This document shows positions 8,496 to 30,423 of a stretch of DNA of 64,000 nucleotides, piece after piece (within the stretch, counting starts at the first letter, position 1; every line of letters starts with the position of its first letter). The stretch lies in sequence record PX393109.1. One strand, 5' to 3'. Origin of the DNA: a phage. A program made the position numbers and the translations under genes. A model generated the notes under the pieces. The model was not told the origin of the DNA and searched no databases. It worked only from the letters and a program-made list of their open reading frames with translations.

Positions 8496-8526
8496 TCCTG
8501 GGGTAGTTAGACTACGGTAATTACTA

Positions 8527-8550
8527 TTGACCTCTTTGCGGAGAGGTCAA
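8527..8550 (+). promoter_or_regulatory. perfect 9-bp inverted repeat (operator- or terminator-like hairpin)
   Basis: TTGACCTCT-TTGCGG-AGAGGTCAA between dut and the next gene; no T-run. Confidence 0.35.
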
Positions 8551-8577
8551 TGTTATTCTACCATAGAACCGAGGAAT

Positions 8578-9404: not shown

Positions 9405-9416
9405 TTAGGAGAAATT

Positions 9417-12957: not shown

Positions 12958-15900
12958 TTAACTAAAGTATGCGCGAACGTTCTTAACGAACGGACGGTTA
13001 ACTGGGTTGGATAGAGACAGGGTGATACGGATGCGGGTATTAGCCACATTTACTCCTGACAGTTTGTAAGGTACAGTGTACCACCCATCTCCCAGAGCGG
13101 TTCCGGTACTCCCTGACAAGGCTACCCATTCGCTATCCTTCTGGTACTGAACGGTTACGCTAGCACCAGATGGTACATACTGATCCAGGATGACGTTAAG
13201 AGTTACCGGAGTAATGTTACCGTTAGGGATACTGAACTGACGCTGGGTATATACCCCAGGAGTATCAGTAGTACCAGAACGGAAGATGACGCCACCGAAG
13301 ACCTTCGGAGATACGGTAGGATCACCGGTATTAAACTCAGCCATCAGACTGAAAGTACCAGAGAAGTTCTCAGTATACGTTTCAGAGTTAACGTTGAGGT
13401 TAATGTTATCAGTACCGTTAGTGAGATAGAATCTCACGGAGGTATTTGCCGGAGTCTCAATATCAGCAGTAAGCGAAAGACTGTTGGTATTGCTAGCTAC
13501 CGTTACAGAACCCAAGTTAACAGTGCGAGTAGAACTATAGTCAGCAGCATGGAGACGATACACCAAGTCTTCATCCTGAACTGGAGACCAGGTAGATTCG
13601 TTCGCAGAAGTCAGAAGAACACCCTGAGCTGGCTGATTCACTACATACTGCTGCTTATCGGGATCATATCCGTTTATCTTAGCTGTGGCTACCTTACCCT
13701 GATAGTTAGCCGTAGCAACTATGATGGCATACTCAGTACCACCAGTCACTGTTACTGGATAACGAAGATTGATCTTGTTCCACCCCAGTACACACTTATT
13801 AGCCGGAACTTCACCGAAGCCATAAAGCTGAGTGGAGTTAGGGATACCTACCAAAGTAGGGACCAGTTTAATCTGGAGTGTGTTAGTAGGCAGCTCAGTC
13901 AGATAGATAGATACTGCGTTAATATCACGAGTAGCCTGGATAGTGAAGGTCTGAGCCACTGGATCGTAACCCCACGGAACAGCACCACCAGTCCAGTTCT
14001 GACCGTAGTCGACTTTACCAGAGTTGTAGATGGTTACGGTACCGCGAGTAATAGCCTTAGTGGTCTTACCAGTAGCAACATACTGATACGTACCGTTAAC
14101 CAAACCACCAGACAGCATATGAGCATACTGTACAGCACCGTTATCATCCGCAGTCAAGGTAACCACTGGCAGGTTACGGAAAGTAAGATCAATCTGTTCG
14201 TTGGCAGCATACCCAGATAGCTTAATCGTGATCGTAGTATCTACCGGCAGAAAGCCACCATGGAAGTACGACCAGAAGCTACGAGTATCGATCTTAGCTG
14301 GTGAAACAGAGATCATCGCCTGAGGTACCTGACCAGACCCAGCATACGGGTTGATGCGGGTGTCCTTAGTACGGAATTCCTGAGACTGAATTACGGTATC
14401 AGTGAATGATAACATAATACCATCAGGAGCCAGACTGGACTGCCGTGAGAAAGATGCTCCGATGAACAGCTGACCATCATCGATAATGGCGTTGTTGGTT
14501 AATCCAGCATCACGCATGTTACCGTTAAGCAGGGAGTCAACTACTACACCTTTCTTAGTCGTAGTCGGATCGGTAGAGCGAGTTTCATCACGGAGCGAAA
14601 GCTGGGCGATGTTGTACTGCATGTCGCTTACCAGAGACATCAGATCTTTTAGCTCATTATAAGTAACCACTTCGATGCGGTCATTGTTAATGACCGGATC
14701 TTGACCCTTAGTCAGACGAACAGTTGCGATAGACAGCAACGTAGCTGAAGTACCTGGTAACTGAGCGTTTGCCAAGATTGCCGGAATACCCTTAGTGATC
14801 TGAACCGCACCAGAGGCATCGATAGATACACGGTCATAGCGAGACAGGAAGTAAGAGTAGGTTACGTAGAACGTAGACCCAGATACCAGAGCATCACTGG
14901 TGGAAATAGTTATGGAGGTATCGTTCCAGGTCGGGATGAACTGATCAATGTACTGATACGTAACCTGGTAAGTAGAACCAGGAGATGGTTCGTTACCAGT
15001 AGGTGACCAGTCTACAGAGTCCCCGTTCTGTACATAGTCACTACCTTTAACATAGACAGTACCACCCTGCTGTACAGAAATAATCTGCAGAACAGGAGTA
15101 TCCGGAAGTAAGTCAGACGAACCCGTTGCGGAACCATGAGTCACCGTACGAGTCACCTGCTTAGTACCGGATACAGCAGTTACCTGATCAATTACAGAGT
15201 AGCGCAGTTGATAGGTGTAAGTACCTGCTGTAAACACGTATGGCTCTGAAGCTACGTTACCAGTATCGTTGATAGGGTCCAGACGCACGGTACTTTCATA
15301 GGCGAACAGTGCTTCGTTTCCGAGTACACGAGCCTTGCCCGCAGACATGTTCAACATAATCTGCTGGGTAGAGCCATCGATGCCTGCATAGGACAGAGTT
15401 AATCCGTCCAGAACATAGTTACCGTGAGTATCAGAATCGTAGCGACCAAGAAGACCAGAGAACTGGTCGAGATCATTACGAGACTTGGTGGTCTTAACCA
15501 GTACGCCATTCTTGAAATAGAATACTGGGAAGAAGGTATCTCCTTCTGGAACATCATCGGCCAACAGCCAAGTAGTTACCTTCTGGAGACGGTCAGCACC
15601 AGCTGAACCATAGCTCGGAGAGTTCTGATACTGCATGAGGAGCTCAGGATCTTCGAGATAGGTGATTACCTTATCAGAGATAGATACACCTAAAACAGCC
15701 TCACCAGCAGTAGGAAACGATGCATCCGTAACAGCAGGTACATTCATAGCCATACCGGCATAGATTAGCGTACCTTCGGTTATAGAGATTACACCGTCTC
15801 CAAGAGCGGAAATATCCGCCCCATCAGTAATGGCACCATCACCGACCAAGAAGCCGGACAGTGTAGAGACGTTATTGAGCTGCTGATCCTGAATTTCGTT

Positions 15901-16002
15901 TAGCTCCGAGCTCTGGAGCGGCCTGTCCGCGATAAACAGATGCTTGGCGTAGTTCTTCTTAGCCGCAAATCTGTTAAAGTAATCAGACGGTAAAGTTGCC
16001 AT
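12958..16002 (-). CDS. tail fibre protein (1014 aa)
   Basis: very large Ser/Thr/Gly-rich beta-type protein at the distal end of the fibre locus. Confidence 0.65.
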   Translation of the reverse strand: MATLPSDYFNRFAAKKNYAKHLFIADRPLQSSELNEIQDQQLNNVSTLSGFLVGDGAITDGADISALGDGVISITEGTLIYAGMAMNVPAVTDASFPTAGEAVLGVSISDKVITYLEDPELLMQYQNSPSYGSAGADRLQKVTTWLLADDVPEGDTFFPVFYFKNGVLVKTTKSRNDLDQFSGLLGRYDSDTHGNYVLDGLTLSYAGIDGSTQQIMLNMSAGKARVLGNEALFAYESTVRLDPINDTGNVASEPYVFTAGTYTYQLRYSVIDQVTAVSGTKQVTRTVTHGSATGSSDLLPDTPVLQIISVQQGGTVYVKGSDYVQNGDSVDWSPTGNEPSPGSTYQVTYQYIDQFIPTWNDTSITISTSDALVSGSTFYVTYSYFLSRYDRVSIDASGAVQITKGIPAILANAQLPGTSATLLSIATVRLTKGQDPVINNDRIEVVTYNELKDLMSLVSDMQYNIAQLSLRDETRSTDPTTTKKGVVVDSLLNGNMRDAGLTNNAIIDDGQLFIGASFSRQSSLAPDGIMLSFTDTVIQSQEFRTKDTRINPYAGSGQVPQAMISVSPAKIDTRSFWSYFHGGFLPVDTTITIKLSGYAANEQIDLTFRNLPVVTLTADDNGAVQYAHMLSGGLVNGTYQYVATGKTTKAITRGTVTIYNSGKVDYGQNWTGGAVPWGYDPVAQTFTIQATRDINAVSIYLTELPTNTLQIKLVPTLVGIPNSTQLYGFGEVPANKCVLGWNKINLRYPVTVTGGTEYAIIVATANYQGKVATAKINGYDPDKQQYVVNQPAQGVLLTSANESTWSPVQDEDLVYRLHAADYSSTRTVNLGSVTVASNTNSLSLTADIETPANTSVRFYLTNGTDNINLNVNSETYTENFSGTFSLMAEFNTGDPTVSPKVFGGVIFRSGTTDTPGVYTQRQFSIPNGNITPVTLNVILDQYVPSGASVTVQYQKDSEWVALSGSTGTALGDGWYTVPYKLSGVNVANTRIRITLSLSNPVNRPFVKNVRAYFS

Positions 16003-16851: not shown

Positions 16852-18306
16852 TTAACTTGCCCAGGTACCCTGAACAGTATCCATCTCCCAGTAACCGGAG
16901 ATAGCACAAACTAAGCGTAACCAGGATCCCTTATCCGAGTTGGAAATAGTGGCTTTCCCATTACGGAAGAGATCTGTACCACCAGTTTTTACTGATACGC
17001 TGTAGTTGGCACCTACAAGAACATCATAGGTCATACCAGGAACAGCGACTGGCAGGGTAACGGTAACAGCAGAAGTGGCACCATCGGTAGTGCAGATAGC
17101 ACCGGTATCAGCTGCGGTAAGAGTTACATTAGCTGTAGACGTGATGATCTTCTTAAGAGCACCAGTCATTACACCATCTACTATCTTGATGGTATCCTTA
17201 CCATTCTGGGTCAGGACTACTGATCCATCGCCTTTATGGGTTACCTTAGAAGTAAGAGTAGGTCCGTGATAGTAGGTATGAATGATATCATAGCCAGTAT
17301 TCACTGCATCGTATCGAAGAATATGATCCTCTGATGCTCTCTTACCGAAGTGGTAATCGACACCTTCAACTATGGTATCTCGGTTCCATGCGTGAGTCTG
17401 GGAAGAGGCTACCACACGATAACGAGATTCAGCTCCGCGAAGAACATGCCAGTCACGGTTAGAGTCATCGCTCATACCCGATTCCCAGATCTTAGTTCCG
17501 CTTACGCTGTAAGATACCTTAGCTCTGGCTAACCCGTTATTACTGTTAAGGTTAAGGTTAGCGTTGGACGCAGACGAGATAATTAAACCATCAGTAGAAT
17601 TACTGATGAATCTCACTGCAGCCGTCCATGAACTACCGTCCCATCCAGACATATCCAGAATCTGGACACCAGGCTTGATGGTTAAATTAGCGAGGGTATA
17701 CTTAACACCAGGGTCGATTATAGCCAGACCAGTGGTGATAGTGGTAAGCATATCCTGAACCTGGCCAGTAGAGTCGGTGAGTTTATCAGGAACAGCACCG
17801 AATTCAGTAGCTCGAAATTCTTTGCTACGACGGACTCTTACCCAACCATTCACTACGTCTTTACTATCAGATGCTATGGAGTCGTTTTCTGTTTTAACTC
17901 TGAACTCACCACCACCAGGGGTACCCTCCCCGAAGTAGCCTTTCACTATCACTCTGTCCCCATCTTTAGGAGTGATAGTTTTCAGATCTTCTACAGAGTT
18001 TACCTGACCAATGTAGCGCCAGGAAGTAGAAGACCCGAACATTGAAATAATGAAGTCTACTGCATTAGTCTGGGCGAAGATCTCGTATCCAGCTTTAAGA
18101 GTAGTTTGTTCGGCATCGGCATACGGAGTTTCACCGTCGGTGGTGTGGGGGATATCCCCCACCCACTTAACCAACACCTTCTTACCATCAGTGCGCACAA
18201 ATCTGAGAATGCAGTGGTTACCGTTTAGATAGATACCAGCCGCATAGTCACCTTTGTACTTAAGGCTGCTTAACTGCAGACTATCTGGCAATTGGGTGGA
18301 CATCAA
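16852..18306 (-). CDS. tailspike/fibre protein
   Basis: N-terminal xWxGDxP adaptor-like motif (LVKWVGDIPHT), then FGAVPDKLTDSTGQVQ beta-helix-entry-like motif. Confidence 0.55.
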   Translation of the reverse strand: MMSTQLPDSLQLSSLKYKGDYAAGIYLNGNHCILRFVRTDGKKVLVKWVGDIPHTTDGETPYADAEQTTLKAGYEIFAQTNAVDFIISMFGSSTSWRYIGQVNSVEDLKTITPKDGDRVIVKGYFGEGTPGGGEFRVKTENDSIASDSKDVVNGWVRVRRSKEFRATEFGAVPDKLTDSTGQVQDMLTTITTGLAIIDPGVKYTLANLTIKPGVQILDMSGWDGSSWTAAVRFISNSTDGLIISSASNANLNLNSNNGLARAKVSYSVSGTKIWESGMSDDSNRDWHVLRGAESRYRVVASSQTHAWNRDTIVEGVDYHFGKRASEDHILRYDAVNTGYDIIHTYYHGPTLTSKVTHKGDGSVVLTQNGKDTIKIVDGVMTGALKKIITSTANVTLTAADTGAICTTDGATSAVTVTLPVAVPGMTYDVLVGANYSVSVKTGGTDLFRNGKATISNSDKGSWLRLVCAISGYWEMDTVQGTWAS

Positions 18307-18327: not shown

Positions 18328-20949
18328 TTAAACTGTCTTAAAGGCTGGCGTATCTACGGAAGTTAATACTGCGCCATCAGGAACGTTAGACTGAAGTGCT
18401 GGGTACACATCAAAGTAATAATTACCACCATTGACATAACCACTGCGGACGATAGTACCGACGTAATCAGCGCCATCCGCACCACCACCTCCTGCTATTT
18501 TAACCTTACATCCGGCAGTCTTATAATACTGGCCAGTCCAGTTAAGGTTAGTCTTAGAGCGAATAGAGTTAGATCCAGAAGTAGCGGCAGCGACAGTTTC
18601 GTTGGAGTAGAACAGAGCTCCAGGAGCAGTCACAGTAAACATAGTTCCGTCACTAGCAACAATAGTGTCGCCAGCCAGCAGAGCCATGCCATAAGGAGTA
18701 CCGGTCTTGGTATGGTAAATCACACCGTTCTGACGCCATGCTGGAGTACCACGGTAATGAGTCGCGGTAGTGGTCTTCTGAATAGGGAAGTTACAATCAG
18801 AGACCTCCAGAGTATCCACCGTGATGTTCTGGACAGTAACGTTAGCCGCACCGGTATTAGGATCAAGGCATTTCATGTTGGAGATGTTAGCAACCATCCA
18901 CTTGTTACGGCGGTAGTTATCTCGAGCATCACCAGACGTGTATCGGAAGTCGAGAATGATTTTCTCAGCTGACCAGTCCGAGAGACGATACTCGGATGCC
19001 ATACCCTGGAGAGATATGGTGGTAGCTTTGATATTCTTCATCTCGACAGTAGAGTTCAGAGTATCGGTAGTACATACCTCAACATGAACAGTACCAGTGA
19101 TATTTACGTTACGAATACGGATATTACGATGAGCGAAGGTATAGGCATTACTCACTGTACCCCACAGGAAGCGAATCATTTCCTCAGTACCATTAACTGG
19201 GGAGCCGATTACGCCATCCACATCGATATCCTTACAACCGTAGGCGATAAGGCCTCCAGTATCCAGACCTACACCAGTTGACTTATTGGCATCTGGGTAA
19301 ATCTCGATGTCTCGGATAGTGATGTTGCGGCATTTCTCCATATGGATACACTGCTTAGCACCCTTAACCTTAACGTTACTGATTACCACGTCTGACATAT
19401 ACTCGGAATCTGGAGCAGTCAGAGAGTAGTTACCAGTACCAGCCAGACCAATTGCAATACCCCAGTTGGCGTTACCAGTGCTAGTTGCGTCGACATTATC
19501 TACAGTGATGTTATCGATTCTGGTATTGGTATCTGCTACTGCCAGGTTAATCTCAATAGGGTCGCTCTTCATGTCGAAGAACTGCAAGTTCTGCAGCAGA
19601 GTCGCAGTGAGCGGCTTGGAGGATGCAGGACTACCCTGACGGAGGTAACCATAATTACAGCGACGCATAATACCGTTAGTGACGAACAGCTGGCTATTAG
19701 CCGCTAATTGCTGACACAGCAGAGCAGCAGTCGCAGAACAGTCATTAATCTCGAACTGGTCGAGTTTAAAAATACCGTTTATGTGACGAATACCGCATTT
19801 GCTAAGGTTCAGCTTAGTTATGTCAGTATCACCATTAACCAGCAGCTGTGAACTAGCACCGGTACCAACTATGGTTAGGTTCTCGATCACTACACCGGAG
19901 ATATCCACCGATTGGTTAGCGATCTTGTAAGTACCCATACCCATAAGCTTAAGACCATAAGTCTTAGCCAGAGTAACAGCGGAGCGAAGAGCTGCTGTAT
20001 CGTCCGTAGTACCGTCGCCTTTAGCTCGAGCCATTTCTGGGGTGATGTATCGAATACCATCAGCCACCGTGCCACCATATCTCAGATAGACAATAGCAGC
20101 ACCAGTAGTTTCGCCAGCAGTCATGAGCTCTGACTTAAGAGCACCAGAACCTACAGGAATCCACTTACCAGTCCCCTGTTCAGACTGAGATGGCTCCGGA
20201 TCTCCATAATTAACAACTTTAGGAAGAACACCATCCCATTTATAATACTCCCCATTTACTGAGAAGCTTACAGTCTGGACTCGGGTAGTGAGAGTCAGGC
20301 TCTGACCTTCAGACAGATCAGTAAGTTTATAATTAACGAAACCTACTTTTTCTGAGATCTCTCTGGTAAGGCTATCGATGCGATCCTGGGTAACGCTAAG
20401 AGCATCACGAGAGTTCAGCTCGGCAGTCACCAGGACGCCCTTCGACAGCTTAATCTTAGTAAGAGTGATCTTGCGACTAATAACATCGATAGTGTAATCT
20501 TCTACGCGAGTAAGGCGGACACCACCTACGAATAGACGTACGCTGGTAAAGGAATAAGGAATATTAAACTCGAATTCCCCATCCTCCTGTACCTCGTAAC
20601 TCCACTCGATACCGCTCTGTACTCCTCCAGTCCAGTAGGATTCTTCGTAGAAGTTACCAGTAGTGGTAAACGGTACAGGACCAGTCCAGTAGTACAGCAG
20701 ATTATCATATCTGACATACTGGCGGTCGTTCTCGATCACCATTCCGGAGGCATAGTTACCGAGGATATACATAGACTGACCAGCAGTCTGTTGCAACTCG
20801 TTAACGTTGCCTATTGTTTCGGCAAGAGTCTCGTCTAATACTTTCTGCTGATTTTCTAACTCTCGAATATCGAGAGTCTGGTTATCATGCTGATAAGTAT
20901 TAAGAGGAGCTCCGCCTAGTTCGCTAAATAACTTAGAACGACCGCCCAT
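18328..20949 (-). CDS. tailspike with pectate-lyase-like right-handed beta-helix (putative polysaccharide depolymerase)
   Basis: KGDGTTDDTAALRSAV (pectate lyase 3-type motif), repetitive beta-helix-like body, N-terminal YKWDGVLPK adaptor motif. Confidence 0.7.
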   Translation of the reverse strand: MGGRSKLFSELGGAPLNTYQHDNQTLDIRELENQQKVLDETLAETIGNVNELQQTAGQSMYILGNYASGMVIENDRQYVRYDNLLYYWTGPVPFTTTGNFYEESYWTGGVQSGIEWSYEVQEDGEFEFNIPYSFTSVRLFVGGVRLTRVEDYTIDVISRKITLTKIKLSKGVLVTAELNSRDALSVTQDRIDSLTREISEKVGFVNYKLTDLSEGQSLTLTTRVQTVSFSVNGEYYKWDGVLPKVVNYGDPEPSQSEQGTGKWIPVGSGALKSELMTAGETTGAAIVYLRYGGTVADGIRYITPEMARAKGDGTTDDTAALRSAVTLAKTYGLKLMGMGTYKIANQSVDISGVVIENLTIVGTGASSQLLVNGDTDITKLNLSKCGIRHINGIFKLDQFEINDCSATAALLCQQLAANSQLFVTNGIMRRCNYGYLRQGSPASSKPLTATLLQNLQFFDMKSDPIEINLAVADTNTRIDNITVDNVDATSTGNANWGIAIGLAGTGNYSLTAPDSEYMSDVVISNVKVKGAKQCIHMEKCRNITIRDIEIYPDANKSTGVGLDTGGLIAYGCKDIDVDGVIGSPVNGTEEMIRFLWGTVSNAYTFAHRNIRIRNVNITGTVHVEVCTTDTLNSTVEMKNIKATTISLQGMASEYRLSDWSAEKIILDFRYTSGDARDNYRRNKWMVANISNMKCLDPNTGAANVTVQNITVDTLEVSDCNFPIQKTTTATHYRGTPAWRQNGVIYHTKTGTPYGMALLAGDTIVASDGTMFTVTAPGALFYSNETVAAATSGSNSIRSKTNLNWTGQYYKTAGCKVKIAGGGGADGADYVGTIVRSGYVNGGNYYFDVYPALQSNVPDGAVLTSVDTPAFKTV

Positions 20950-21073
20950 TGGTGATCTCCATAAAAATATTACATGATGTACAAATACTTAGTAACTTTA
21001 GGGTAGTGATTAGTTTAAGTTAAATCTTAAATTGAAGCCTCTCCCTTCTACTACCTACGGTAAAAGTCTTTAT

Positions 21074-24061
21074 TTACTGCTTCTTTTCAAGATCGGAAAG
21101 TCTGGCTTCGATTCTTTCCAGTCTTCTTCTCTGGAATGCTGCCTCAGCAAAGAAAATTCCATCAGGTCTCACTCCCCACTCCTCACCCTCTTCGTGAATA
21201 ACCACCTCGGTGTATACAGGCTCTTCCGTGGTAGTGACATTACCCTCCTCGTCAGTATGTTCAACGACTTCATAGTGAGAGAATACCATGTCTGTCATGC
21301 GAGGATATTTGTCGTAACACAGAACAGCATATCGGCAATCCGTGCTGTCCTCATCCATCAGACCGTGAGCAATGAATACATCACGGATCTGCTGAGCAAT
21401 TACGCCAAAATGGATTCTAGCTTCATTCCCTTTTAGGTGTACAGAATCCAACCACTGGTACATAATGTAATGAACGTCTCCCCAAGCATCTAAAAAAGCA
21501 TCATCAAAAACTACCGGCTCTGTTTTCTTCTCTCCGTTAGAAGTAACAATAGGGTTGCTTCCGAGGTATGCAGTGGTGAAACGGTTGCTAGGACCACCAA
21601 GCGCAATGACGTTATCGTTATAAGGCTTAACATCAGCACTCCGAAACAGGTGCTCATCTCCGTTGTAAACTATCCTGCGAGAAGCTGTGTTACTCGCACC
21701 GTAAAGCGTAATCTGTGCACCAGTAGAAGAACTGGTGCCGTCTCCTCCGCAAAATATGATACGCTGTCCTGCGGGGTTATTAGTCGGTACAGATTTCCCG
21801 ATAAACCCATACTCACCCTCCATTAAAACTTCAGAGCGAATGTTACTACTGGTGCTGGCTCTAATGACCACATGACCTAAACCCAAATCCCCTGTAAATT
21901 CCATTGGCGCAGGAACAGTGCGAGTTCCATTCGTATCAAAAAACACTGGAACCGCTCTGTCAGGTACAGCACCATACCTGAAATCACGAGAAACGCGATT
22001 GTCTGGACCGATTTTCATTTTGTAACAATACAAATCTGAGGGATGACCGTCTGATTTGAATGGGTCCTTCTCTAAGTTATCTCCATACGTCCATGGGTTC
22101 AGATGGTCTTCCCCACCGAACATGTAATAGATATAACTATCTTTCACGACAACCGATCCGACACCGACTCCAGAGTTAACAATACCACCCTGATAAATCT
22201 GATCAGAGATGTTTACCCACTGAGTATTATCCAAGTTCCAGGTGTCGAGGTTCACTCGCGTGTAGAACGTTCGTGGGTAAGAACTGAAATATCGTTGATC
22301 CGGTGCGTTTGCTTCCCACTCGTTGTCTGCGCGTTCAGTACCGAAAAGAATCAGTTCGTTTCCTACCTTAGCGAATGGCAGGGTAGAGTGGTGTACGTTA
22401 TTCGGAAACCTCAGCGATTGCCAGGTAATCCCCAGGTCGTTACTGCGATGAAGAGAACTACCAAGACGATCAGACCTGGTTCCACGGGTTACAACATAAA
22501 GAACACCGTCAAAATACTTAACGCAGGGTTCTGACGCATCTGGCTCATATTCAGCAGGAATACGTCGTTTCTGGTAAAGACCAGGATTGTTGAACGCATC
22601 AGGGAAATACAACATACCTACTTCACGCGGAGCAACATCACCCTGGTGGTACCCCATCATGAATGAGTCGTTATTGATGGCGGTAAAACTATGAACCTCG
22701 GTAACCATAGGGATCAATCCAAGACTGGTTTTACGCCATGGTGACTGATGGAACGATGTCCCCATATGCCAGCGGTTGGTAGAGTTATTTTGGTCGAATG
22801 CTTGTTGATTTGGTGTGGTAACTGTGAACGTGTTGCGGTCAATAACTGAAGTTACAGTCATATTCCCAGAAACTCCAGTCACCCCAGAGTTTGAGAAGTT
22901 AACAAAATCCCCAGCAAAAAGACCGTGTTCGGGGATGGTAATTACAGCCACAGACTGGTTGGCCGCTTTTGTTATACCACCTGTCAGATGGTAGTTACGG
23001 GACATGGGGCGATCCCACAACTCACAGGTCACTAATGCGTTAGCTGCTAAAGTACGGGTCTCAATCATCGCAAAGAGACGATTACGCATCACTCCCATAC
23101 TCATACAGTGGTAGTTAACTGTTGGGTAATTAGGGTGTAGGTCAGTTAGCCACTCCGGGGTCGTCCAGGTCTGCCCGTCATCTCCTGAGCGAACCCAGGA
23201 TACATGAAGCCTGCTAACCCCGTGCCGATCGCTAGCCATGAACGGACAGTAAATAACATCGTCGTAAACGAACGCTTTATCCTGAGGCCAAGCATTGTAA
23301 TAAGGGGTATCGGTTATTTTAATTAACTCGCCCTGAACAAACTCGTCAGACACATAATAAAGCGGCTGGCCAGGAATACGCTCATAAACGAAACGAGTGT
23401 TGACGAATCTGCTAATATCTGGAAGCGCGGATACTTTATAGGTTCTACCGTTACCATTAATTTTCTGACCTACTGGAGCAGCGCTTAACAGATTATTAAG
23501 AGCCACAGTATCATCGACTAATCCATCACCTTTAGCTCCCCAACCACGAGGGTCGAAAATGTCACGCCATCGAGCAATCTGCAATTCGGGGTATTTTGTT
23601 GCACCATCCGGGTCTGATATTTGCCCTCGCAGTGCGGTATCACCAATACTAGCCCAAGCATCAGAAGAGACACCACCAGTAGTTAGCGGTGATGAGTTAG
23701 CATATACAGTTTTAGGGAACACACCACCCCACACGTAGCACTGGCCACCATCAATATGCCAGACAGCATCCTTTTTACTGTTTACTGTAGCACCTTCTTC
23801 AAAAGTGCCAACAAGAGTTAGTCCTAAGTCACCTAGTAATAACTTCCACTGTTCTTTAGTATTATTAATTATCGATAAATTAGACTTTTTTAAAATGGAG
23901 GTTCTAGTAGCTAATTGGGTTATTGGATGATTAATATGTCCGGATACTGGTTCATCCTTAGAATTAGTAACTAGTTGACCGCCTTCTGCCCTATCCGTCT
24001 TTTCTAAGCGGCGAATAGTCTCGGGCCAAGTTGACCCTTCTACAATTGGATTATAAGACAT
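21074..24061 (-). CDS. tailspike with Asp-box repeats and C-terminal S74 intramolecular chaperone domain (endosialidase-like)
   Basis: GAKGDGLVDDTVAL; two Asp-boxes SGDDGQTWT and SNDLGITWQ; C-terminal TSNGEKK...IHFGVIAQQIRDV...YDKY resembles Peptidase_S74 autoproteolytic chaperone. Confidence 0.7.
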   Translation of the reverse strand: MSYNPIVEGSTWPETIRRLEKTDRAEGGQLVTNSKDEPVSGHINHPITQLATRTSILKKSNLSIINNTKEQWKLLLGDLGLTLVGTFEEGATVNSKKDAVWHIDGGQCYVWGGVFPKTVYANSSPLTTGGVSSDAWASIGDTALRGQISDPDGATKYPELQIARWRDIFDPRGWGAKGDGLVDDTVALNNLLSAAPVGQKINGNGRTYKVSALPDISRFVNTRFVYERIPGQPLYYVSDEFVQGELIKITDTPYYNAWPQDKAFVYDDVIYCPFMASDRHGVSRLHVSWVRSGDDGQTWTTPEWLTDLHPNYPTVNYHCMSMGVMRNRLFAMIETRTLAANALVTCELWDRPMSRNYHLTGGITKAANQSVAVITIPEHGLFAGDFVNFSNSGVTGVSGNMTVTSVIDRNTFTVTTPNQQAFDQNNSTNRWHMGTSFHQSPWRKTSLGLIPMVTEVHSFTAINNDSFMMGYHQGDVAPREVGMLYFPDAFNNPGLYQKRRIPAEYEPDASEPCVKYFDGVLYVVTRGTRSDRLGSSLHRSNDLGITWQSLRFPNNVHHSTLPFAKVGNELILFGTERADNEWEANAPDQRYFSSYPRTFYTRVNLDTWNLDNTQWVNISDQIYQGGIVNSGVGVGSVVVKDSYIYYMFGGEDHLNPWTYGDNLEKDPFKSDGHPSDLYCYKMKIGPDNRVSRDFRYGAVPDRAVPVFFDTNGTRTVPAPMEFTGDLGLGHVVIRASTSSNIRSEVLMEGEYGFIGKSVPTNNPAGQRIIFCGGDGTSSSTGAQITLYGASNTASRRIVYNGDEHLFRSADVKPYNDNVIALGGPSNRFTTAYLGSNPIVTSNGEKKTEPVVFDDAFLDAWGDVHYIMYQWLDSVHLKGNEARIHFGVIAQQIRDVFIAHGLMDEDSTDCRYAVLCYDKYPRMTDMVFSHYEVVEHTDEEGNVTTTEEPVYTEVVIHEEGEEWGVRPDGIFFAEAAFQRRRLERIEARLSDLEKKQ

Positions 24062-24136
24062 TTAATCACCCTATGATATTGTCAACACTTCGTTTATCAT
24101 AACCCATGTACAAGTTGCACCTGCTATTGTAGCTAT

Positions 24137-24760
24137 TTATTTAGCTCGAACGATGTACAGAAATGCTACGTTCTTTGGTACAATTTCATTGGTGCCGTTT
24201 CGTCCATATACTGAAGATGATCGTGATGCCAAGAAGTTAATTACTGTAGGATACTTAGAGGTATCGTTAATATCCATTGGAAGTCCAGCTAATCTATAAT
24301 ACTGACCTTTAGTATTAGTACCGTAGAGTGATCCAGAACCAAATCCTGATGCTGTGCTTTCCCAGATTGATGCATTCTCAGTATTAACAGTCCTGAACCA
24401 CCCAAATATTTCTGGGGCAGAATCTGACTGACCAGTATTGATCGTTCGCCCTGCATCCATGCCTCTGCCATCATCATAACCACGGATAAATTGTGCACGT
24501 AGATCTTGTAACTGATTAGTTGTCCATAGCTTAGCCAGTTCTGGGTATGTTTCTGGATCGAATACCTGACCATTCATCTTCAGAAATCGCATACCTTTCA
24601 TTGAGGTGAATATCTCATCAGGCATCTTGGTAGGATGGACCCATGGGAATGGTACTCCGATTAATGGAGCTCCATTACCGATACCTAGCTGGCGTAGATA
24701 TGCTTCAACTTCAGCATCTGTACCTTCGTTCATTAAGTACTTAAGACGAGTGAGGCTCAT
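24137..24760 (-). CDS. stand-alone tail-collar (receptor-binding tip) domain protein
   Basis: GVPFPWVHP...YPELAKLW...LQDLRAQFIRGYDDGRGMDAGR...NVAFLYIVRAK, paralogous to the C-terminus of the 25444-26886 fibre. Confidence 0.6.
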   Translation of the reverse strand: MSLTRLKYLMNEGTDAEVEAYLRQLGIGNGAPLIGVPFPWVHPTKMPDEIFTSMKGMRFLKMNGQVFDPETYPELAKLWTTNQLQDLRAQFIRGYDDGRGMDAGRTINTGQSDSAPEIFGWFRTVNTENASIWESTASGFGSGSLYGTNTKGQYYRLAGLPMDINDTSKYPTVINFLASRSSSVYGRNGTNEIVPKNVAFLYIVRAK

Positions 24761-24835
24761 AATGACACCTCACTTACAATCATGATACTATCTGGAGTCA
24801 TGTAATTAATTGACATAACTACCCCTTATTAAATA

Positions 24836-25444
24836 TTACTTGGCAGGTGCTTCTGGCCATACGATAGTATCAGGATCAGTAGTTTCAATAGCTTCTACTT
24901 CCTCTTGATAATCTAGCCATAAATTGAACTTGACTTTATCAGCATCGCTCAGTCGACCCATTGCCAGTTTGGATGGCCACTGCTTACTATTGATATAAGC
25001 ATTAGCATCTTCAATCAGTGCTACTTTCTTAGCATCAGCTGCAGCTACCTTAGATTCGTACTCGGCAACCTCATCCAGTACCCAAGCACTCGTATCTTCA
25101 TCCCACTTATCATGGATTGAAGTAGGTGCGATGATCGTATAAGTGTCATCGATAGGACCAAGCTCCTGGATAGTGACCTTAGTTTGATCATCTTTTGAGT
25201 AAACTTCTACTCCACGGTGATCTTCTACGTATTCCCACTTCTTGGTATCTTCATGATATACTCGTGCATATCCTTCACGTTCTTCAAGTACTGGAACGAT
25301 GGTGGAGTGAGCTGGTACTGATACGCCTACGTAGATAAACTCTTCACGATTAAACGTGAACTCATGAGTGTTCTCATTGTAGTTATAAACCATCACCTTA
25401 CCAGAAGTGGTGGCAAAACCTTGATCGTTAAATTCAATACTCAT
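24836..25444 (-). CDS. tail fibre assembly chaperone (Tfa-like)
   Basis: C-terminal ...LWLDYQEEVEAIETTDPDTIVWPEAP typical of Tfa/gp38-like chaperones; immediately downstream of a fibre gene. Confidence 0.65.
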   Translation of the reverse strand: MSIEFNDQGFATTSGKVMVYNYNENTHEFTFNREEFIYVGVSVPAHSTIVPVLEEREGYARVYHEDTKKWEYVEDHRGVEVYSKDDQTKVTIQELGPIDDTYTIIAPTSIHDKWDEDTSAWVLDEVAEYESKVAAADAKKVALIEDANAYINSKQWPSKLAMGRLSDADKVKFNLWLDYQEEVEAIETTDPDTIVWPEAPAK

Positions 25445-26886
25445 TATAATGCCCTTACAATAATGTTGTATGCGACGTTACGTGGACGTGTCTCATTCGG
25501 AAGATTATCAACTATGTTAGTAGTCCTCATATTCTTACTAAGATCATCCAACTCACCACGAGCTCCGGCATGTAGCGTGACATTGTAAGAATTACCTGGT
25601 AGCTGAACTGGACTGCCATTAGTTTTGATCTGAGTATTATGAATATGTTCCTGAATAGATTGTGATTGACTACTCAAGATAGTTCTTCCTGCATCAACGT
25701 TTCTACCGTCATCCCAACCACGTATAAATTCACCACGTAGATCAGGTAACTTATTAGTAGGATAAACAGTAGCTAACTTAGGATACAGTTCAGCATCGAA
25801 GTTATCACCACGAGCTTGGATGAAGTGCATACCTTTCAGTTCAGGATATACTTCATCCGGCATCTTATCCGATGGCCAGTAGAAGGGTACACCAATCATC
25901 GGTACACCGAATTCATACTTGGTCTTATCCATCTTACCAGCTAATGTGACCAGTACTTGCTGCAGATCTGCCACACCAGCATTAGCGATACCTGCGAATA
26001 ACTTGACTACCCAGCATCCAATAGCCGCATTAGGACGTACTTCATCAGTACCGTCACGACCATAAGATGGACTAGATACTGAAGCATCAATTCTTATATC
26101 TAGTACTCCACTATTAGTACTAGATACAGCATTAGACATTTTACCATTATACTCAGCGATTATCGATGAGTTAGATGGTACACCTGATCCGAAGATGTTA
26201 ACTATATTACTAACTGAGCCAGTAATATTAGGTGCACCATTCTGTAGTACTTTACCGGTACGAGCTGTATCACCATTATCACCACGGATGTGCAATCCCT
26301 TTATGGAATCACTCAGCTTACCATTTAGGTCAGGTACTCGAAAAGTAGTCGTACCATCACCAGTAGTATAACAGTGACGCTTAGTAGGATCAGCTACCCA
26401 GTCAGCTTCAGGACATACTTGTACTAGTCCAGCATTAATTGCTGCCCAAGTATCAGGATACAAGATACGTGAGAAGATACCACCATCAGCTGCTACGAAT
26501 CCACCCCATAATGGTGACCCTAATAACTTACGAGAGGATAACCACTTAACTTCCAATAAGTTACCAGCACCCATTTGGTCGATCGACCAAGGTACCCAGT
26601 TAGAATGGGTGATAGGTGCGTTTGCAATATCTACTGGGAAGTTACCCTTCCATGAATATGCACGCTGACGATCAAGAGATACTACTAGATCGAATCGGTT
26701 AGATAAGATACCACCGAACTCAAAAGTAGCTGCCAGATTGTAACCACAATCGGCTAAGTCATTCGCCCACAACTCGATGATGTTATCTTGGTTGTTCTTA
26801 ATCTTAGGAGTCAATTCATTACGAAGTTCACCAGCACCATCAGATGGATTGAAACCAATATAACCACCCATATTAGTTCTCCACAA
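25444..26886 (-). CDS. tail fibre with C-terminal tail-collar domain
   Basis: GVPFYWPSDKMPDEVYPELKGMHF...LPDLRGEFIRGWDDGRNVDAGR...NVAYNIIVRAL. Confidence 0.7.
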   Translation of the reverse strand: MWRTNMGGYIGFNPSDGAGELRNELTPKIKNNQDNIIELWANDLADCGYNLAATFEFGGILSNRFDLVVSLDRQRAYSWKGNFPVDIANAPITHSNWVPWSIDQMGAGNLLEVKWLSSRKLLGSPLWGGFVAADGGIFSRILYPDTWAAINAGLVQVCPEADWVADPTKRHCYTTGDGTTTFRVPDLNGKLSDSIKGLHIRGDNGDTARTGKVLQNGAPNITGSVSNIVNIFGSGVPSNSSIIAEYNGKMSNAVSSTNSGVLDIRIDASVSSPSYGRDGTDEVRPNAAIGCWVVKLFAGIANAGVADLQQVLVTLAGKMDKTKYEFGVPMIGVPFYWPSDKMPDEVYPELKGMHFIQARGDNFDAELYPKLATVYPTNKLPDLRGEFIRGWDDGRNVDAGRTILSSQSQSIQEHIHNTQIKTNGSPVQLPGNSYNVTLHAGARGELDDLSKNMRTTNIVDNLPNETRPRNVAYNIIVRAL

Positions 26887-27214
26887 TGGAAAGAGTCAGG
26901 TCTACCATGTTCGAGTTATTAGAAGTATCTACAGCGGATGCTGAAGCTACTACCTGATCACCATCCATGAGAATTACCTTAGCAGAATCGATATTCAATG
27001 CCGACTTCTGAGGAAGATTAGTGTCTTTACCTAGCAGGTAGACATCATTTCCAGATGCTGGTTTAATCTTAAGCTGGAACTGAGCTGCAGCATCTGTAAC
27101 ACCATTATGGGCTGCCAGGATTCCAACGATTATAGCACCAGTAGCCGGAGTAGTATAAATGGTAGATTCAGATTTAGTTAGCGTAGCGCTAGCTCGTTTA
27201 AATTTAGCTGCCAT
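26873..27214 (-). CDS. hypothetical virion protein
   Basis: 113-aa ORF inside the fibre locus. Confidence 0.4.
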   Translation of the reverse strand: MAAKFKRASATLTKSESTIYTTPATGAIIVGILAAHNGVTDAAAQFQLKIKPASGNDVYLLGKDTNLPQKSALNIDSAKVILMDGDQVVASASAVDTSNNSNMVDLTLSIVEN

Positions 27215-27223
27215 GAGTATTCC

Positions 27224-28141
27224 TTAGAAAATTAGAGCATTTATGAAAGCTGCATTTTCTACTTCGTTTATGCGAGTAGTTAGAGCATTCTCTACACTAT
27301 CTAACTGGGCAACAGTAGCATAGCGATACAGAGCACCAGTCTTAACAGGAACCCATTTACCATCACCAATACCGTCCGCTTCAGGAGTACTGTTAGCATT
27401 TACGGTCTTCGGAAAATCGCCATCCCAGCGATACAGAACACCATCATGCATAACTATGCAGTGGTTCTGACGTAGAGTAAAGCCAGTACTGAAGTCGCCT
27501 CCAGTAAAGTACTTATACTCTTCTAATTCGACGGCGTAAGCAGATAAGTCTACTCCACCATTGCTATGTACGAACCATCCGCCAGCTGTTAAGCTAACGA
27601 TAGTTGATCCCTCTGGAATACCCATCGGCAAACGATAGGCTTCCTGGGAGGCTAAGTCATACAATACACGAAAGCCGTCGAGAGGACGACCTACTTTCAT
27701 GAACTGGACTTCTTCGGTCTTAACTCGGAATGCCCGAGCAACCATGTCCACTTGACGTTGGTTTACCGGAATCACCTCAGTCCATAACCCATCAGGATTA
27801 CTTTCTGGGTCGAAAATCCCACCGGTATCTTCTGGAGATGAGTTCTCGGCGACCGATTTGGGGAAGGAGCCTAGCCAGTAATACCACTTGCCAGACACCT
27901 CGTCATACACACCATCCCCAGAGTCCTGGAGATCAAACCCTATCCCGAAAGTACCTACTGGGTTAATCCCATAGATATCCAGGAATGAATTCAATGCCAG
28001 ACTACGGAGATATGTAGTTCTGTCGGTAAGATTCTTAATGGGTACGTTATCAATACCGTCATCACCACCCGACACTTTGTCAGTACGTTCGAAGGTATAG
28101 ATGTCCTCTACGTACTGATTTTTACCCTGATAAGTACCCAT
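27224..28141 (-). CDS. tail fibre/baseplate-attached protein (paralogue of 28154-28921)
   Basis: shared N-terminal GGDDGIDNVPIKNLTDRTTYLRSLAL; internal duplicated WxGxFPK modules. Confidence 0.55.
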   Translation of the reverse strand: MGTYQGKNQYVEDIYTFERTDKVSGGDDGIDNVPIKNLTDRTTYLRSLALNSFLDIYGINPVGTFGIGFDLQDSGDGVYDEVSGKWYYWLGSFPKSVAENSSPEDTGGIFDPESNPDGLWTEVIPVNQRQVDMVARAFRVKTEEVQFMKVGRPLDGFRVLYDLASQEAYRLPMGIPEGSTIVSLTAGGWFVHSNGGVDLSAYAVELEEYKYFTGGDFSTGFTLRQNHCIVMHDGVLYRWDGDFPKTVNANSTPEADGIGDGKWVPVKTGALYRYATVAQLDSVENALTTRINEVENAAFINALIF

Positions 28142-28153
28142 TTCGATATCCTA

Positions 28154-28921
28154 TTATATAGTGTAAGAGAACGTGTATCTCAGAGACAGCTCGTCTGTAC
28201 TACCCTGATTAATCTCAAGAACAGCCACACTACTGTCCACATCGGCATAAATCTGACCAGCTACTATACCAACGCCAACTCCTGAGAGGCTTGAGTCATC
28301 TGAGAAGGTAGCGTTAATAGGTAAGCCAATTCCTATTTTCATTACTTCTCCGGCATCGGTAGCAGAAGCAGTGATCTTGCCGTTAACAGTAACCACATTC
28401 CCTAGTCGGGTATATATGGCTTCTGCTATGTCTAGATTGGAGACATTCTCAATCTTAACGAAGGCTGGATTGTACTTACCGCTATACAGATTACCAGGAG
28501 CAGCTGCTGTAGGGATCTTAACCCCAGCACCCAGGTCTAGAACACTGAGATCAATAGCCACCCACTTACCGCTAGGATTGGTGATCGGATCATAGATACC
28601 ACCAGTAGTTTCTGGCTTAGAAGACTTAACCACTACTTTAGGTAGAGATCCTGTCCACTTAAACCACTTACCGGAGATCTCGTCGAAGACCGCATACCCA
28701 GCCACGTTAATCTGGAATCCTTGTTTGAACGAGCCGAGAGGATTAAGATTGAACAGCTTAAGGAATGTAAAGTCAGCAAGAGCCTTAAGATAAAACGTAC
28801 GATCCGACAGCTGGGTAAGAGGTACGTTATCAATGCCGTCCGGGCCACCTTTAACCACATCACTTTCTTCAAATTGGTACACCTGAGCATGAAAGTTAAA
28901 TGCCCCAGTATAATTGCTCAT
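28154..28921 (-). CDS. tail fibre/baseplate-attached protein (paralogue of 27224-28141)
   Basis: GGPDGIDNVPLTQLSDRTFYLKALA and KWFKWTGSLPK modules. Confidence 0.55.
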   Translation of the reverse strand: MSNYTGAFNFHAQVYQFEESDVVKGGPDGIDNVPLTQLSDRTFYLKALADFTFLKLFNLNPLGSFKQGFQINVAGYAVFDEISGKWFKWTGSLPKVVVKSSKPETTGGIYDPITNPSGKWVAIDLSVLDLGAGVKIPTAAAPGNLYSGKYNPAFVKIENVSNLDIAEAIYTRLGNVVTVNGKITASATDAGEVMKIGIGLPINATFSDDSSLSGVGVGIVAGQIYADVDSSVAVLEINQGSTDELSLRYTFSYTI

Positions 28922-28929
28922 CTAATCAC

Positions 28930-30423
28930 CTATAGATTGGCATCGCGATAGTAAGTATCATCGTGACTAATAACGTCGTTGTACAGAGGTTCGAATCCGT
29001 AACGAGTTACTTTCTCACCGCGATTATAAGTTCCGTCATGGAGAATAGTCCCATCCCGTTTCTCTAAGAGTCTTTCGGTCTTATGAGTGGTTAGGAACAT
29101 AGCTTCTCGGTAGCTAGACCAATGAGTATACCAATCGTATACTTTGATCTTTTTAATGAACTCCTGGTGAAGATAACGAGTACCATCCAGCAGGTAAGAC
29201 CCATTAATGAAGTCCATACCTTCGAAGTGTAGCCAGTCTATTTCTGGCAATCCGTAATAAGCCGTCCCGCTACGCTGAGTTTGGCCATCACGATGAGGCT
29301 GAATTACATACAGGCTATCGTATTCGAAGCTCTGATAGTTAGTTAAATCGTAACCCTCAGCGTAATTACCACCTTCATATCCGTAGTTTACTTGCTCTAC
29401 TCCCTTGGATAAGTGGTCTATCTTCCTATCCATATAATTCTCGAACCCAAACTCTGATAGGTCGATATCCAAGAACAGGAAGATCTCACGCAGCATAGAG
29501 GACTTAAACTCCAACCCAGCTACCAAGTCTGATAAGTCCAGTAAGGACTCAATCTCAGTAGTTCTGGAATCGGCGCTTAAATCTACATTAAACTTAGCCA
29601 ATGAGCTATAGAGTCTGCTGTGAGCAGTGTCGGTATTCTGGAGATCTAAGTATGTACCCATATCCAGAATAAGACCATTATCTAGCTTGATAGTTCTCCT
29701 ATCGAATACAGTCAGATAAGAGTTCATCAGACGATCTGAGAAGCGATCAATCAACACTTCAAGAGGTACTTCCATCTCCGACATAATATCGAGACAGAAT
29801 CGCAGCCATAGAGTATCCGAAATATCTGGGACTCGTATACCTACTGAACCATCCAGGATTGATGTGTCTAGCAACCAACTGGTGTCCAAGGAGGCGCTTC
29901 CGAGAGATTCAACGCCATCTGGAAGACAGTTAGCGATACCGGTAAGTCTTACGCATATCGGAAATACCTTACGCGACAGACGATCAATTAGCTTAATCTG
30001 CCGAGTAGACAAGATCACGTTCTTAGGAAGCAGGATGGTTGCCAGTGAGCAGCCTTCCGGAGTCTTCTGATACAAGATCTCTTCTATCTCTACATTTATC
30101 AGCTTAAAGATAAGATCAACCCCATCCTTCATACCCTTGTTATCAAGGATACTTGGGAGGAGTACAGATACTGAGTTTTGGTCTACCTCTGTAGTTATGA
30201 GATCTGCTAAGTCTGGTTGACCCAGTAGCTCCAGGATGTAAATCGGATCATAAGACGGTTTACTAGGATCATAAATCGCCGTATTTTTATCCATCTCTGG
30301 AAAGACAACAGTCTCTAGACCATGATCCAGCACCTGCGAGAAGAACTTATATAACTCGTTCCCTCTAAGGTTAGGAGAGAAGTAATCTAGAGTGTTGAAC
30401 TTAGCCATACTCATACCCCGCAT
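28930..30423 (-). CDS. baseplate protein (gpI/Mu gp48-like position)
   Basis: 497-aa ORF directly downstream of the J-like gene; gene order only. Confidence 0.45.
   Translation of the reverse strand: MRGMSMAKFNTLDYFSPNLRGNELYKFFSQVLDHGLETVVFPEMDKNTAIYDPSKPSYDPIYILELLGQPDLADLITTEVDQNSVSVLLPSILDNKGMKDGVDLIFKLINVEIEEILYQKTPEGCSLATILLPKNVILSTRQIKLIDRLSRKVFPICVRLTGIANCLPDGVESLGSASLDTSWLLDTSILDGSVGIRVPDISDTLWLRFCLDIMSEMEVPLEVLIDRFSDRLMNSYLTVFDRRTIKLDNGLILDMGTYLDLQNTDTAHSRLYSSLAKFNVDLSADSRTTEIESLLDLSDLVAGLEFKSSMLREIFLFLDIDLSEFGFENYMDRKIDHLSKGVEQVNYGYEGGNYAEGYDLTNYQSFEYDSLYVIQPHRDGQTQRSGTAYYGLPEIDWLHFEGMDFINGSYLLDGTRYLHQEFIKKIKVYDWYTHWSSYREAMFLTTHKTERLLEKRDGTILHDGTYNRGEKVTRYGFEPLYNDVISHDDTYYRDANL

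Follow-up and report, generated by a model that had tools for sequence, protein, structure and literature searches.

A predicted K1F-type endosialidase tailspike precursor encoded by a mosaic gene of a contractile-tailed Escherichia coli phage

A minus-strand reading frame at positions 21074–24061 of sequence record PX393109.1 (we refer to the whole 64,000-nucleotide stretch of phage DNA analysed here as the window) raises the question of what a 995-amino acid protein does among the tail genes of this phage, where the ortholog in vB_EcoM_IME392 has been deposited just as a 'putative tail fibers protein' with the enzyme unnamed. We conclude that it is very probably the precursor of a homotrimeric endosialidase (endo-α-2,8-N-acetylneuraminidase) of the K1F endoNF type, a type belonging to CAZy family GH58, and that an E. 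coli phage with a contractile tail, a member of the IME392 lineage, uses it as a tailspike to bind and depolymerise the polysialic acid (K1) capsule. The observations behind this are the way the domains are arranged, the matches to solved structures, the functional residues that have been conserved, the purifying selection on the gene and its genomic setting. A sequence-only reading of the same DNA had suggested a capsule-degrading tailspike, 'possibly an endosialidase', and this is upheld by the endosialidase Pfam domains, a gapless alignment with endoNF and the retention of the catalytic residues; we found no evidence in this analysis that contradicts a K1 endosialidase.

The frame begins with an ATG and continues for 995 codons to a stop at 21074–21076 in the list of open reading frames, and it shares both start and stop with the IME392 ortholog (AXY86125.1), which is also 995 amino acids long (98.6% amino acid and 96.4% nucleotide identity, with 14 amino acid differences) and found at the same locus with the same neighbours, in a genome where the adjoining fibre cluster holds ~1.6 kb more than in the window. 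A Shine–Dalgarno-like GGGTGA lies 4 nt 5' of the ATG on the minus strand (24066–24071; read directly from the sequence, with its function presumed), while a scan of 20700–24900 for promoters and terminators gave counts close to those expected from shuffling, and the 124 nt that follow the gene contain no terminator-like site. Comparison with the ortholog gave a dN/dS of 0.05 over 107 nucleotide differences (0.045 in the catalytic region, and similarly low in the C-terminal domain, or CTD), and as the minus-strand frame is under such strong purifying selection, we regard the plus-strand frames inside the gene at 21032–21436 and 22103–22534 as chance. The exact protein sequence is absent from a collection of 15 billion proteins. 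The 995-amino acid frame proposed by the sequence-only reading is thus the right one, and all of the motifs it quoted were found, with GAKGDGLVDDTVAL at aa 175–188, SGDDGQTWT at aa 292–300, SNDLGITWQ at aa 540–548, TSNGEKK at aa 840–846, IHFGVIAQQIRDV at aa 883–895 and YDKY at aa 916–919.

Four endosialidase Pfam domains, together with Tail_spike_N and Peptidase_S74, were matched above their curated cutoffs, at levels well past chance for the propeller and Peptidase_S74, and the protein also matched phrog_1171, 'tail spike protein' (7.7e-288). All features lie on the minus strand. The protein starts with a lineage-specific N-terminal anchor, presumably a virion-attachment module (aa 1–80; 23822–24061), followed by the Tail_spike_N domain of the CBA120 TSP1/gp66 type (aa 81–155; 23597–23821), for which PF18668 scores 55.4 bits over aa 85–141 with a cutoff of 25 and the PDB sequence matches are 9vvr, 8x8m, 5w6h (CBA120 TSP4) and 4oj5 (CBA120 TSP1). 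The GAKGDGLVDDTVAL motif (23498–23539) marks the start of the endosialidase N-terminal extension, End_N_terminal (aa 176–242; 23336–23536; PF12218, 121 bits), and this leads into the catalytic six-bladed β-propeller, End_beta_propel, which is matched over the full length of the profile (aa 243–684; 22010–23335; PF12217, E = 2e-204). Inserted in the propeller is the polysialic acid-binding β-barrel domain, End_beta_barrel (aa 354–436; 22754–23002; PF12195, 135.9 bits), and the propeller is followed by the stalk, End_tail_spike, which ends at the predicted mature C-terminus T840 (aa 687–840; 21542–22003; PF12219, 255 bits). The two sialidase-type Asp-boxes reported from the sequence are present, SGDDGQTW (aa 292–299; 23165–23188) and SNDLGITW (aa 540–547; 22421–22444) being aligned with the K1F endoNF Asp-boxes at 362 and 610, respectively. 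A search for the pattern S-x-D-x-G-x-T-W over the six reading frames of the window matched just these two sites, with ~0.0007 matches expected in the protein from its composition.

The relationship with K1F endoNF (gp17; PDB 1v0e, 3gvj-l and 3ju4, with the chaperone as 3gw6) is very close. In a PDB sequence search, 1v0e, 3gvl and 3ju4 were matched without gaps at E = 0 and ~83% identity over aa 176–840 (the phi92 endosialidase, 4hiz, was matched at 3e-229), and the full alignment is gapless from K1F aa 145, equivalent to aa 75 here, as far as the last residues, the numbering being shifted by 70 throughout. Identity varies along the protein, with 82% in the propeller, 71% in the β-barrel, 93% in the stalk and 92% in the CTD, so that it is in the β-barrel that the two proteins differ most. 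The endoNF active site has been listed as H350, R549, E581, R596 and R647 (PMC12632334), and each of these is identical here (H280, R479, E511, R526 and R577). We checked 22 K1F residues, most of them highlighted by a mutational scan of K1F (PMC12632334), and found 21 to be identical; the exception is K410, which is A340 here, and K410A was neutral in that scan (PMC12632334). An AlphaFold2 monomer model made from a 30-sequence alignment (mean pLDDT 67) was used solely for a confirmatory fold search, in which Foldseek ranked endoNF, the phi92 enzyme and the chaperone ahead of bacterial and trypanosomal exosialidases. The model is good for Tail_spike_N (pLDDT ~83–88), the propeller and the barrel, and falls below 50 for aa 1–65 and the stalk (aa 721–847), with values below 35 in the anchor; low values in the stalk are to be expected of an intertwined trimer.

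The C-terminal part of the protein (aa 841–995; 21077–21541) is predicted to be an intramolecular chaperone that is released by self-cleavage, as had been suggested from the sequence. The Peptidase_S74 profile is present (PF13884, which scores 35.5 bits with the whole protein and 38 bits when the CTD is searched by itself, with a cutoff of 22), the endoNF chaperone structure 3gw6 matches aa 720–994 at E = 2e-173, and the Ser/Lys dyad S841/K846 is aligned with and identical to K1F S911/K916. S74 intramolecular chaperones are known to cleave themselves by a conserved Ser/Lys dyad mechanism (PMC3742443). The predicted autoproteolytic site lies between T840 and S841 and, with the dyad, falls in SNGEKK (aa 841–846; 21524–21541), where the local sequence AYLGSNPIVT/SNGEKKTEPVVFDDAFLDAW (the slash indicates the cut) differs from that of K1F by a single residue. 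In the K1F record AM084414, the boundary between gp17* and the CTD is annotated at codon 911, the CTD mature peptide starting with S911, and the last residue of the crystal constructs 1v0e and 3gvl aligns exactly with T840, so that the earlier placement of the cut near the serine of TSNGEKK agrees with the alignment. Cleavage here would convert a 111-kDa precursor into a 93-kDa mature spike and a 155-amino acid fragment of 18.1 kDa, rather than the 12–15 kDa product given before. The S74 chaperones of the GA-1 neck appendage (3gud, 2.1e-12) and T5 pb1 (4uw8, E = 0.0032) also match the CTD, and the likeness to the T5 L-shaped fibre noted previously is therefore real but weak; for GA-1, T5 pb1 and the MYRF ICA domain, the passenger domains are unrelated to our protein and the likeness is confined to the chaperone and the preceding triple-β-helix.

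At the other end of the protein, aa 1–82 searched alone gave no family or structure match in Pfam and the PDB, and among 50,697 phage records the anchor (aa 1–80) was found only in IME392 (100%) and in the sister phage EP_H11, where it is 49% identical over aa 1–59 and carried by a 560-amino acid protein with a different body, EP_H11 being without the endosialidase. The anchor contains a fibre-type motif, E-x-T-D..GG..N-x-P-[IL]-x-Q-L..R-T, that is common to the tailspike and to two other tail proteins of 305 and 255 amino acids encoded in the window. It is clear that the tailspike gene is a mosaic and was acquired horizontally, its lineage-specific anchor being joined to a Tail_spike_N domain of the CBA120 type and this in turn to a K1F-like body. 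The same catalytic body and chaperone occur with N-terminal anchors of at least five kinds in podoviruses, Schitoviridae, Ackermannviridae, P22-like prophages and the IME392 lineage, and we consider the tailspike a clear-cut case in which receptor-binding modules have been exchanged.

The gene is part of a minus-strand tail module that also encodes a tail sheath, a baseplate wedge, fibres together with proteins for their assembly, and a depolymerase of the colanic acid-degrading type. An Rfam search of the whole window returned nothing beyond two tRNAs. The cluster at 18328–28921 contains the endosialidase, the colanic acid-degrading-type spike, two fibres that have collar domains and are accompanied by a Tfa chaperone, and the 305- and 255-amino acid proteins, which have Tail_spike_N only (27224–28921), so that several distinct receptor-binding proteins are encoded together on a contractile-tailed phage. 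As both of the Tail_spike_N-only proteins have the anchor motif seen in the tailspike, we suggest tentatively, as something possible but doubtful, that they might form a branched adaptor on which the endosialidase is hung, rather than directly on the baseplate. If true, such an adaptor would give contractile tails a new means of carrying a K1F-type endosialidase, in a poorly studied lineage (IME392/EP_H11). Equally tentatively, the diverged β-barrel might give a range of capsule variants unlike that of K1F.

By homology with K1F we would expect the spike to be made and to work as follows. The 155-residue S74 domain would drive trimerisation of the stalk and folding, after which Ser841 and Lys846 would cut between T840 and S841 to remove the 18-kDa fragment and leave a stable 93-kDa spike. 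The anchor and Tail_spike_N (aa 1–80 and 81–155) may then mount the spike on the baseplate-distal receptor-binding complex, and sites in the β-barrel and stalk would hold polysialic acid while the propeller site (H280/R479/E511/R526/R577) cleaves it to clear a path to the outer membrane. Enzyme activity, self-cleavage, trimeric state and position in the virion are all predicted in this scheme from homologs. As for the host, phages whose bodies are 80–90% identical were obtained from K1 or pathogenic strains of E. coli, with hosts or isolates including K1F, 'E. coli K1 LU_100', O18ac:K1:H7 and APEC IMT5155.

Other explanations of the locus can be weighed with these results. The sequence-only reading had included a pectate-lyase-type entry motif, and a tailspike of that type, a right-handed β-helix depolymerase with a GAKGDG..DDT motif, gains something from an alignment of PF12708 (Pectate_lyase_3) to aa 173–192 at E = 0.048 and from 18/37 residues in the motif region of the endosialidase N-terminus being identical to the start of the catalytic region of the neighbouring 873-amino acid depolymerase. 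The alignment, however, scores 13.9 bits with a cutoff of 27 and covers profile positions 7–26 of 213, and the Pfam search with the full protein gave no PF12708 match at E ≤ 0.1. The motif is best regarded as a ~20-residue likeness to a short, shared N-cap motif and not as a domain, the region is assigned to End_N_terminal at 121–126 bits, and profiles, crystal-structure matches and the fold search all make the body a β-propeller with a β-barrel and stalk. These domain and structure matches rule out a pectate-lyase domain, and a β-helix depolymerase is hardly credible. A mosaic, horizontally acquired gene that the sister phage EP_H11 lacks might also be a decaying or non-functional recombination remnant that the phage does not use, but the intact 995-codon frame, the dN/dS of 0.05 over 107 differences, the retention of all functional residues and the presence of an SD-like site make this extremely unlikely.

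A tailspike that binds the capsule without degrading it is a slightly better prospect, yet still very improbable. Engineered inactive endosialidases continue to bind polysialic acid and serve as detection reagents (PMC5380687), and so a binding-only role for a catalytically dead, lectin-like adhesin with an endosialidase fold that leaves the capsule intact is physically possible; against this, H280, R479, E511, R526 and R577 are all retained here and the catalytic region has a dN/dS of 0.045. More weight, though with a probability we still judge to be rather low, can be given to an endosialidase whose specificity has shifted or broadened from that of K1F, which would refine our main reading. 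As the catalytic region departs from K1F at 17% of its residues and the β-barrel at 29% (identities of 82% for the propeller and 71% for the barrel), fine specificity could differ and might extend to O-acetylated K1 or to K92 with its alternating α-2,8/α-2,9 linkages. β-barrel loops were hotspots for host discrimination in the K1F scan (PMC12632334), and phi92 gp143 reportedly hydrolyses linkages of either type (PMC13450770). All of the named active-site residues and the checked hotspots G730, N732, G742 and S460 are nevertheless identical to K1F, and the tailspike has far higher identity with K1F (83%) than with phi92 (~51%). We retain an endosialidase of the K1F type as our reading of the locus.

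As this enzyme family is well known the finding is an ordinary one, and current understanding of the family is unchanged. It provides a precise predicted function for a gene with an uninformative label in its closest GenBank record, that of IME392, and predicts that K1-encapsulated E. coli are the target of a rare lineage of myoviruses of ~116 kb. Such strains are responsible for meningitis in newborns, for urinary infections and for disease in birds, and the prediction may be of use in choosing phages for therapy and as a further source of endosialidase for polysialic acid work.

Compared with known systems, the tailspike shares its body with K1F gp17 but differs in how it would be attached, as the gp17 N-terminus is an adaptor of the T7 tail fibre type for a podovirus tail (PF03906 in K1F-like matches), which is not the case here, where there is just 19% identity with K1F aa 1–156 and the virion is that of a ~116-kb myovirus rather than a 40-kb Autographiviridae podovirus. 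The tail spike of YX22 (WPH64569.1; Ackermannviridae, host APEC IMT5155) has the same set of domains including Tail_spike_N, with 90% identity from aa 87 on and 96–100% over much of the propeller, whereas the first ~100 residues are 14–24% identical and the virus belongs to a different family; YX22 is a multi-spike contractile-tailed phage, as here. A parallel in overall arrangement is phi92, also a myovirus, whose multivalent adsorption apparatus carries an endosialidase (gp143, PDB 4hiz), a colanic acid-degrading spike and several fibres (PMC13450770), an arrangement known here from the genes. The phi92 endosialidase has the same fold and domain order, with ~51% identity in the catalytic body, while phi92 itself is a 148-kb Justusliebigvirus that is absent among the megablast matches and unrelated by nucleotide sequence to the phage described here.

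The 995-codon endosialidase tailspike ORF lies on the minus strand at 21074..24061 in the ORF list of the window, with a Shine-Dalgarno-like GGGTGA 4 nt upstream of the ATG. The motifs on which the sequence-only reading had based a capsule-degrading S74 tailspike were all found in the protein, namely GAKGDGLVDDTVAL (aa 175–188), the Asp-boxes SGDDGQTWT (aa 292–300) and SNDLGITWQ (aa 540–548), TSNGEKK (aa 840–846), IHFGVIAQQIRDV (aa 883–895) and YDKY (aa 916–919), and the observation is confirmed. The S-x-D-x-G-x-T-W pattern has two matches in the six-frame translation of the whole 64-kb window, both within this ORF; about 0.0007 would be expected in a 995-aa protein of this composition.

Six Pfam domains exceeded the curated cutoffs in the 995-aa protein: Tail_spike_N (aa 85–141; 55.4 bits), End_N_terminal (aa 176–242; 121 bits), End_beta_propel (aa 243–684; E=2e-204) with End_beta_barrel inserted in the propeller (aa 354–436; 135.9 bits), End_tail_spike (aa 687–840; 255 bits) and Peptidase_S74 (aa 844–901; 35.5 bits against a cutoff of 22), the last giving a positive outcome to the Pfam check proposed for it. 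Crystal constructs of endoNF, the K1F endosialidase (1v0e, 3gvj-l, 3ju4), aligned gap-free to aa 176–840 (E=0) and the crystallised endoNF stalk-plus-chaperone fragment 3gw6 matched aa 720–994 (E=2e-173), and together with the endosialidase domains these bear out the earlier guess of an endosialidase. The phi92 endosialidase 4hiz was also matched (E=3e-229), the GA-1 neck appendage 3gud is a weaker relative of the chaperone (E=2.1e-12), and the suggested likeness of the C-terminus to the T5 L-shaped fibre is present as a weak match to 4uw8 (E=0.0032). Foldseek placed endoNF first for an AlphaFold2 monomer model made with an alignment of 30 homologues, followed by the phi92 enzyme, the chaperone, and bacterial and trypanosomal exosialidases, and this ranking fits a sialidase-type propeller.

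Individual residues were compared in an alignment with K1F gp17 (1064 aa), in which the K1F numbering runs 70 ahead throughout, from residue 145 to the C-terminus. The key catalytic residues in a deep-mutational scan of the K1F spike, H350, R549, E581, R596 and R647 (PMC12632334), are identical here as H280, R479, E511, R526 and R577; agreement extends to 21 of 22 K1F residues compared, the majority of which were picked from that work, and the sole mismatch is K410 to A340, with K410A neutral in the scan. S841 and K846 align with K1F S911 and K916, and the surroundings of the cleavage site (AYLGSNPIVT followed by SNGEKKTEPVVFDDAFLDAW) differ from K1F at one position; in endosialidases this Ser and Lys form the catalytic dyad for self-cleavage (PMC3742443). 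The annotation of the K1F record AM084414 ends mature gp17* at codon 910 and begins the released C-terminal chaperone domain (CTD) at codon 911, with which S841 aligns, and self-cleavage is predicted where it had been anticipated, near the TSNGEKK serine. The products would be of 93.2 kDa (aa 1–840) and 18.1 kDa (aa 841–995), and the earlier figure of 12–15 kDa for the fragment is slightly low.

Over 24 kb the window shares ~97% identity with Escherichia phage vB_EcoM_IME392 (MH719082; 116 kb). The protein is already known in that the IME392 ortholog AXY86125.1 (995 aa, 98.6% identical) has been deposited, labelled only 'putative tail fibers protein', and the exact sequence is absent from a collection of 15 billion proteins. 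The two genes have 107 nucleotide and 14 amino-acid differences, and as dN/dS is 0.05, and is just as low when the catalytic part or the CTD is taken alone, the endosialidase gene is under strong purifying selection.

Three other readings of the protein were weighed. A beta-helix lyase might be suggested by the pectate-lyase-type entry motif, and aa 147–250 were scanned separately for the pectate-lyase profile PF12708, which matched no more than 20 residues and reached 13.9 bits, its cutoff being 27. On that stretch End_N_terminal had a score of 126 bits, and 18 of 37 residues of the motif recur identically where the catalytic region begins in the adjacent 873-aa depolymerase. The pectate-lyase likeness is thus real but short, positioned where the catalytic region starts; the resemblance stands, the beta-helix domain was rejected on the two profile scores, and the data contradict a lyase of this type. 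They also contradict a pseudogene and a spike that only binds. Architecture, residues, selection and genomic context are directly observed. We consider it very likely that the whole is best explained by a baseplate-mounted endosialidase precursor with S74 self-cleavage which cleaves K1 polysialic acid, and the original interpretation holds in every essential point. The S74 chaperone would drive trimerisation of the precursor, after which the Ser841/Lys846 dyad would cleave between T840 and S841 and free the 18-kDa chaperone; aa 1–155 would mount the mature 93-kDa trimer at the baseplate periphery, the beta-barrel and stalk sites would grip K1 polysialic acid, and the propeller active site would cut the alpha-2,8 linkages, so that the capsule is cleared ahead of infection. 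Its activity, self-cleavage, oligomeric state and place in the virion are predicted here by homology, with 83–92% identity to an experimentally characterised protein. Fine specificity could differ from that of K1F: the beta-barrel is the domain most diverged from K1F (71% identity) and is a host-discrimination hotspot in K1F (PMC12632334).

The endosialidase is a three-part mosaic of anchor, Tail_spike_N and catalytic body. The anchor (aa 1–80) was found in IME392 and the sister phage EP_H11 only, among 50,697 phage records; the EP_H11 copy (49% identical over aa 1–59) starts a protein of 560 aa encoded at the corresponding locus, and the body of that protein is matched by another 'tailspike depolymerase' (PDB 24qj). 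The Tail_spike_N part (aa 81–174) is of a type known from CBA120 and other multi-spike phages, and the catalytic body (from ~aa 175) is K1F-like but closer still, at 90% or more, to the YX22 spike, YX22 being a phage of the Ackermannviridae. In a large protein database the same body occurs on T7-tail (PF03906), P22 head-binding (PF09008) and Tail_spike_N-only N-termini, among others, with no match covering more than 94% of the query, and this variety is the module exchange already described among endosialidase spikes (PMC5380687).

The gene sits in a long minus-strand structural cluster which encodes a tail sheath (39750–41549, minus strand) and a baseplate wedge subunit (30401–31774, minus strand), and the phage is therefore contractile-tailed. 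Directly downstream is an 873-aa colanic-acid-degrading-type spike (18328–20949, minus strand; phrog_6117 'colanic acid degradation', 7.7e-177), which has a weak Tail_spike_N match and an AKGDG..DDT motif as in the endosialidase, and is 98.4% identical to IME392 and at most ~40% to any other phage protein. The anchor motif is common to the N-termini of surrounding tail proteins, including a 305-aa protein which is essentially two copies of Tail_spike_N (27224–28141, minus strand) and a 255-aa protein which is essentially Tail_spike_N (28154–28921, minus strand); both are without an enzymatic body and may be adaptor or branching proteins in the spike complex.

A pair of collar-domain fibres is encoded at 24137–26886 together with a fibre-assembly chaperone. 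The fibre cluster at 25444–26886 (minus strand), especially ~25489–26448, is ~1.6 kb shorter than in IME392 (7929–9540 in its locus L001). What is missing is the 3' portion of a gene for a 448-aa fibre, then a gene for a 142-aa fibre-assembly protein and the 5' portion of the gene for the 483-aa collar fibre. The 480-aa ORF in the window looks like a chimera of these two IME392 fibre genes, with just 81–89% nucleotide identity to IME392 in the C-terminal part, and the phage therefore has a fibre and a chaperone less than IME392, and its fibre tip is diverged. In EP_H11 (locus L003, OP688485; 9386–16187) the flanking baseplate and tail genes are kept at ~93% identity and an entirely different set of three receptor-binding genes (824, 560 and 780 aa) stands in place of the endosialidase, the colanic-acid spike and the cluster of fibres; the receptor-binding cassette has been exchanged whole.

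A 484-aa protein adjoining the colanic-acid spike (16852–18306, minus strand) matched no Pfam family and has weak EPS-depolymerase/tail-fibre PHROG matches (aa ~76–222; 2.6e-11), and may be one more receptor-binding protein. A 1014-aa protein that closely follows the spike cluster on its downstream side (12958–16002, minus strand) matches DUF4815 over the full profile (7.2e-131). A 952-aa protein (34950–37808, minus strand) with a C-terminal endolysin/lysozyme-like domain (aa ~700–920; phrog_181, 3.5e-39), the EP_H11 counterpart of which is annotated lytic murein transglycosylase, is probably a cell-wall hydrolase associated with the tail, or a tape-measure fusion. Rfam and ARAGORN found two tRNA genes only in the window, tRNA-Arg(TCT) at 55541–55617 and tRNA-Met(CAT) at 55763–55838, both on the plus strand.

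The endosialidase family, the chaperone mechanism and modular spike evolution are textbook knowledge, and the novelty is modest: a function that can be stated precisely for a gene with a vague annotation, from a rare lineage of myoviruses, and the documentation of a lineage-specific anchor common to several tail proteins of the same phage. The arrangement of spikes, fibres and small Tail_spike_N proteins resembles the multi-fibre apparatus of the myovirus phi92, which likewise carries an endosialidase (gp143) together with a colanic-acid-degrading enzyme, gp150 (PMC13450770); the two phages have no nucleotide-level relationship and the catalytic bodies of their endosialidases are just ~51% identical.
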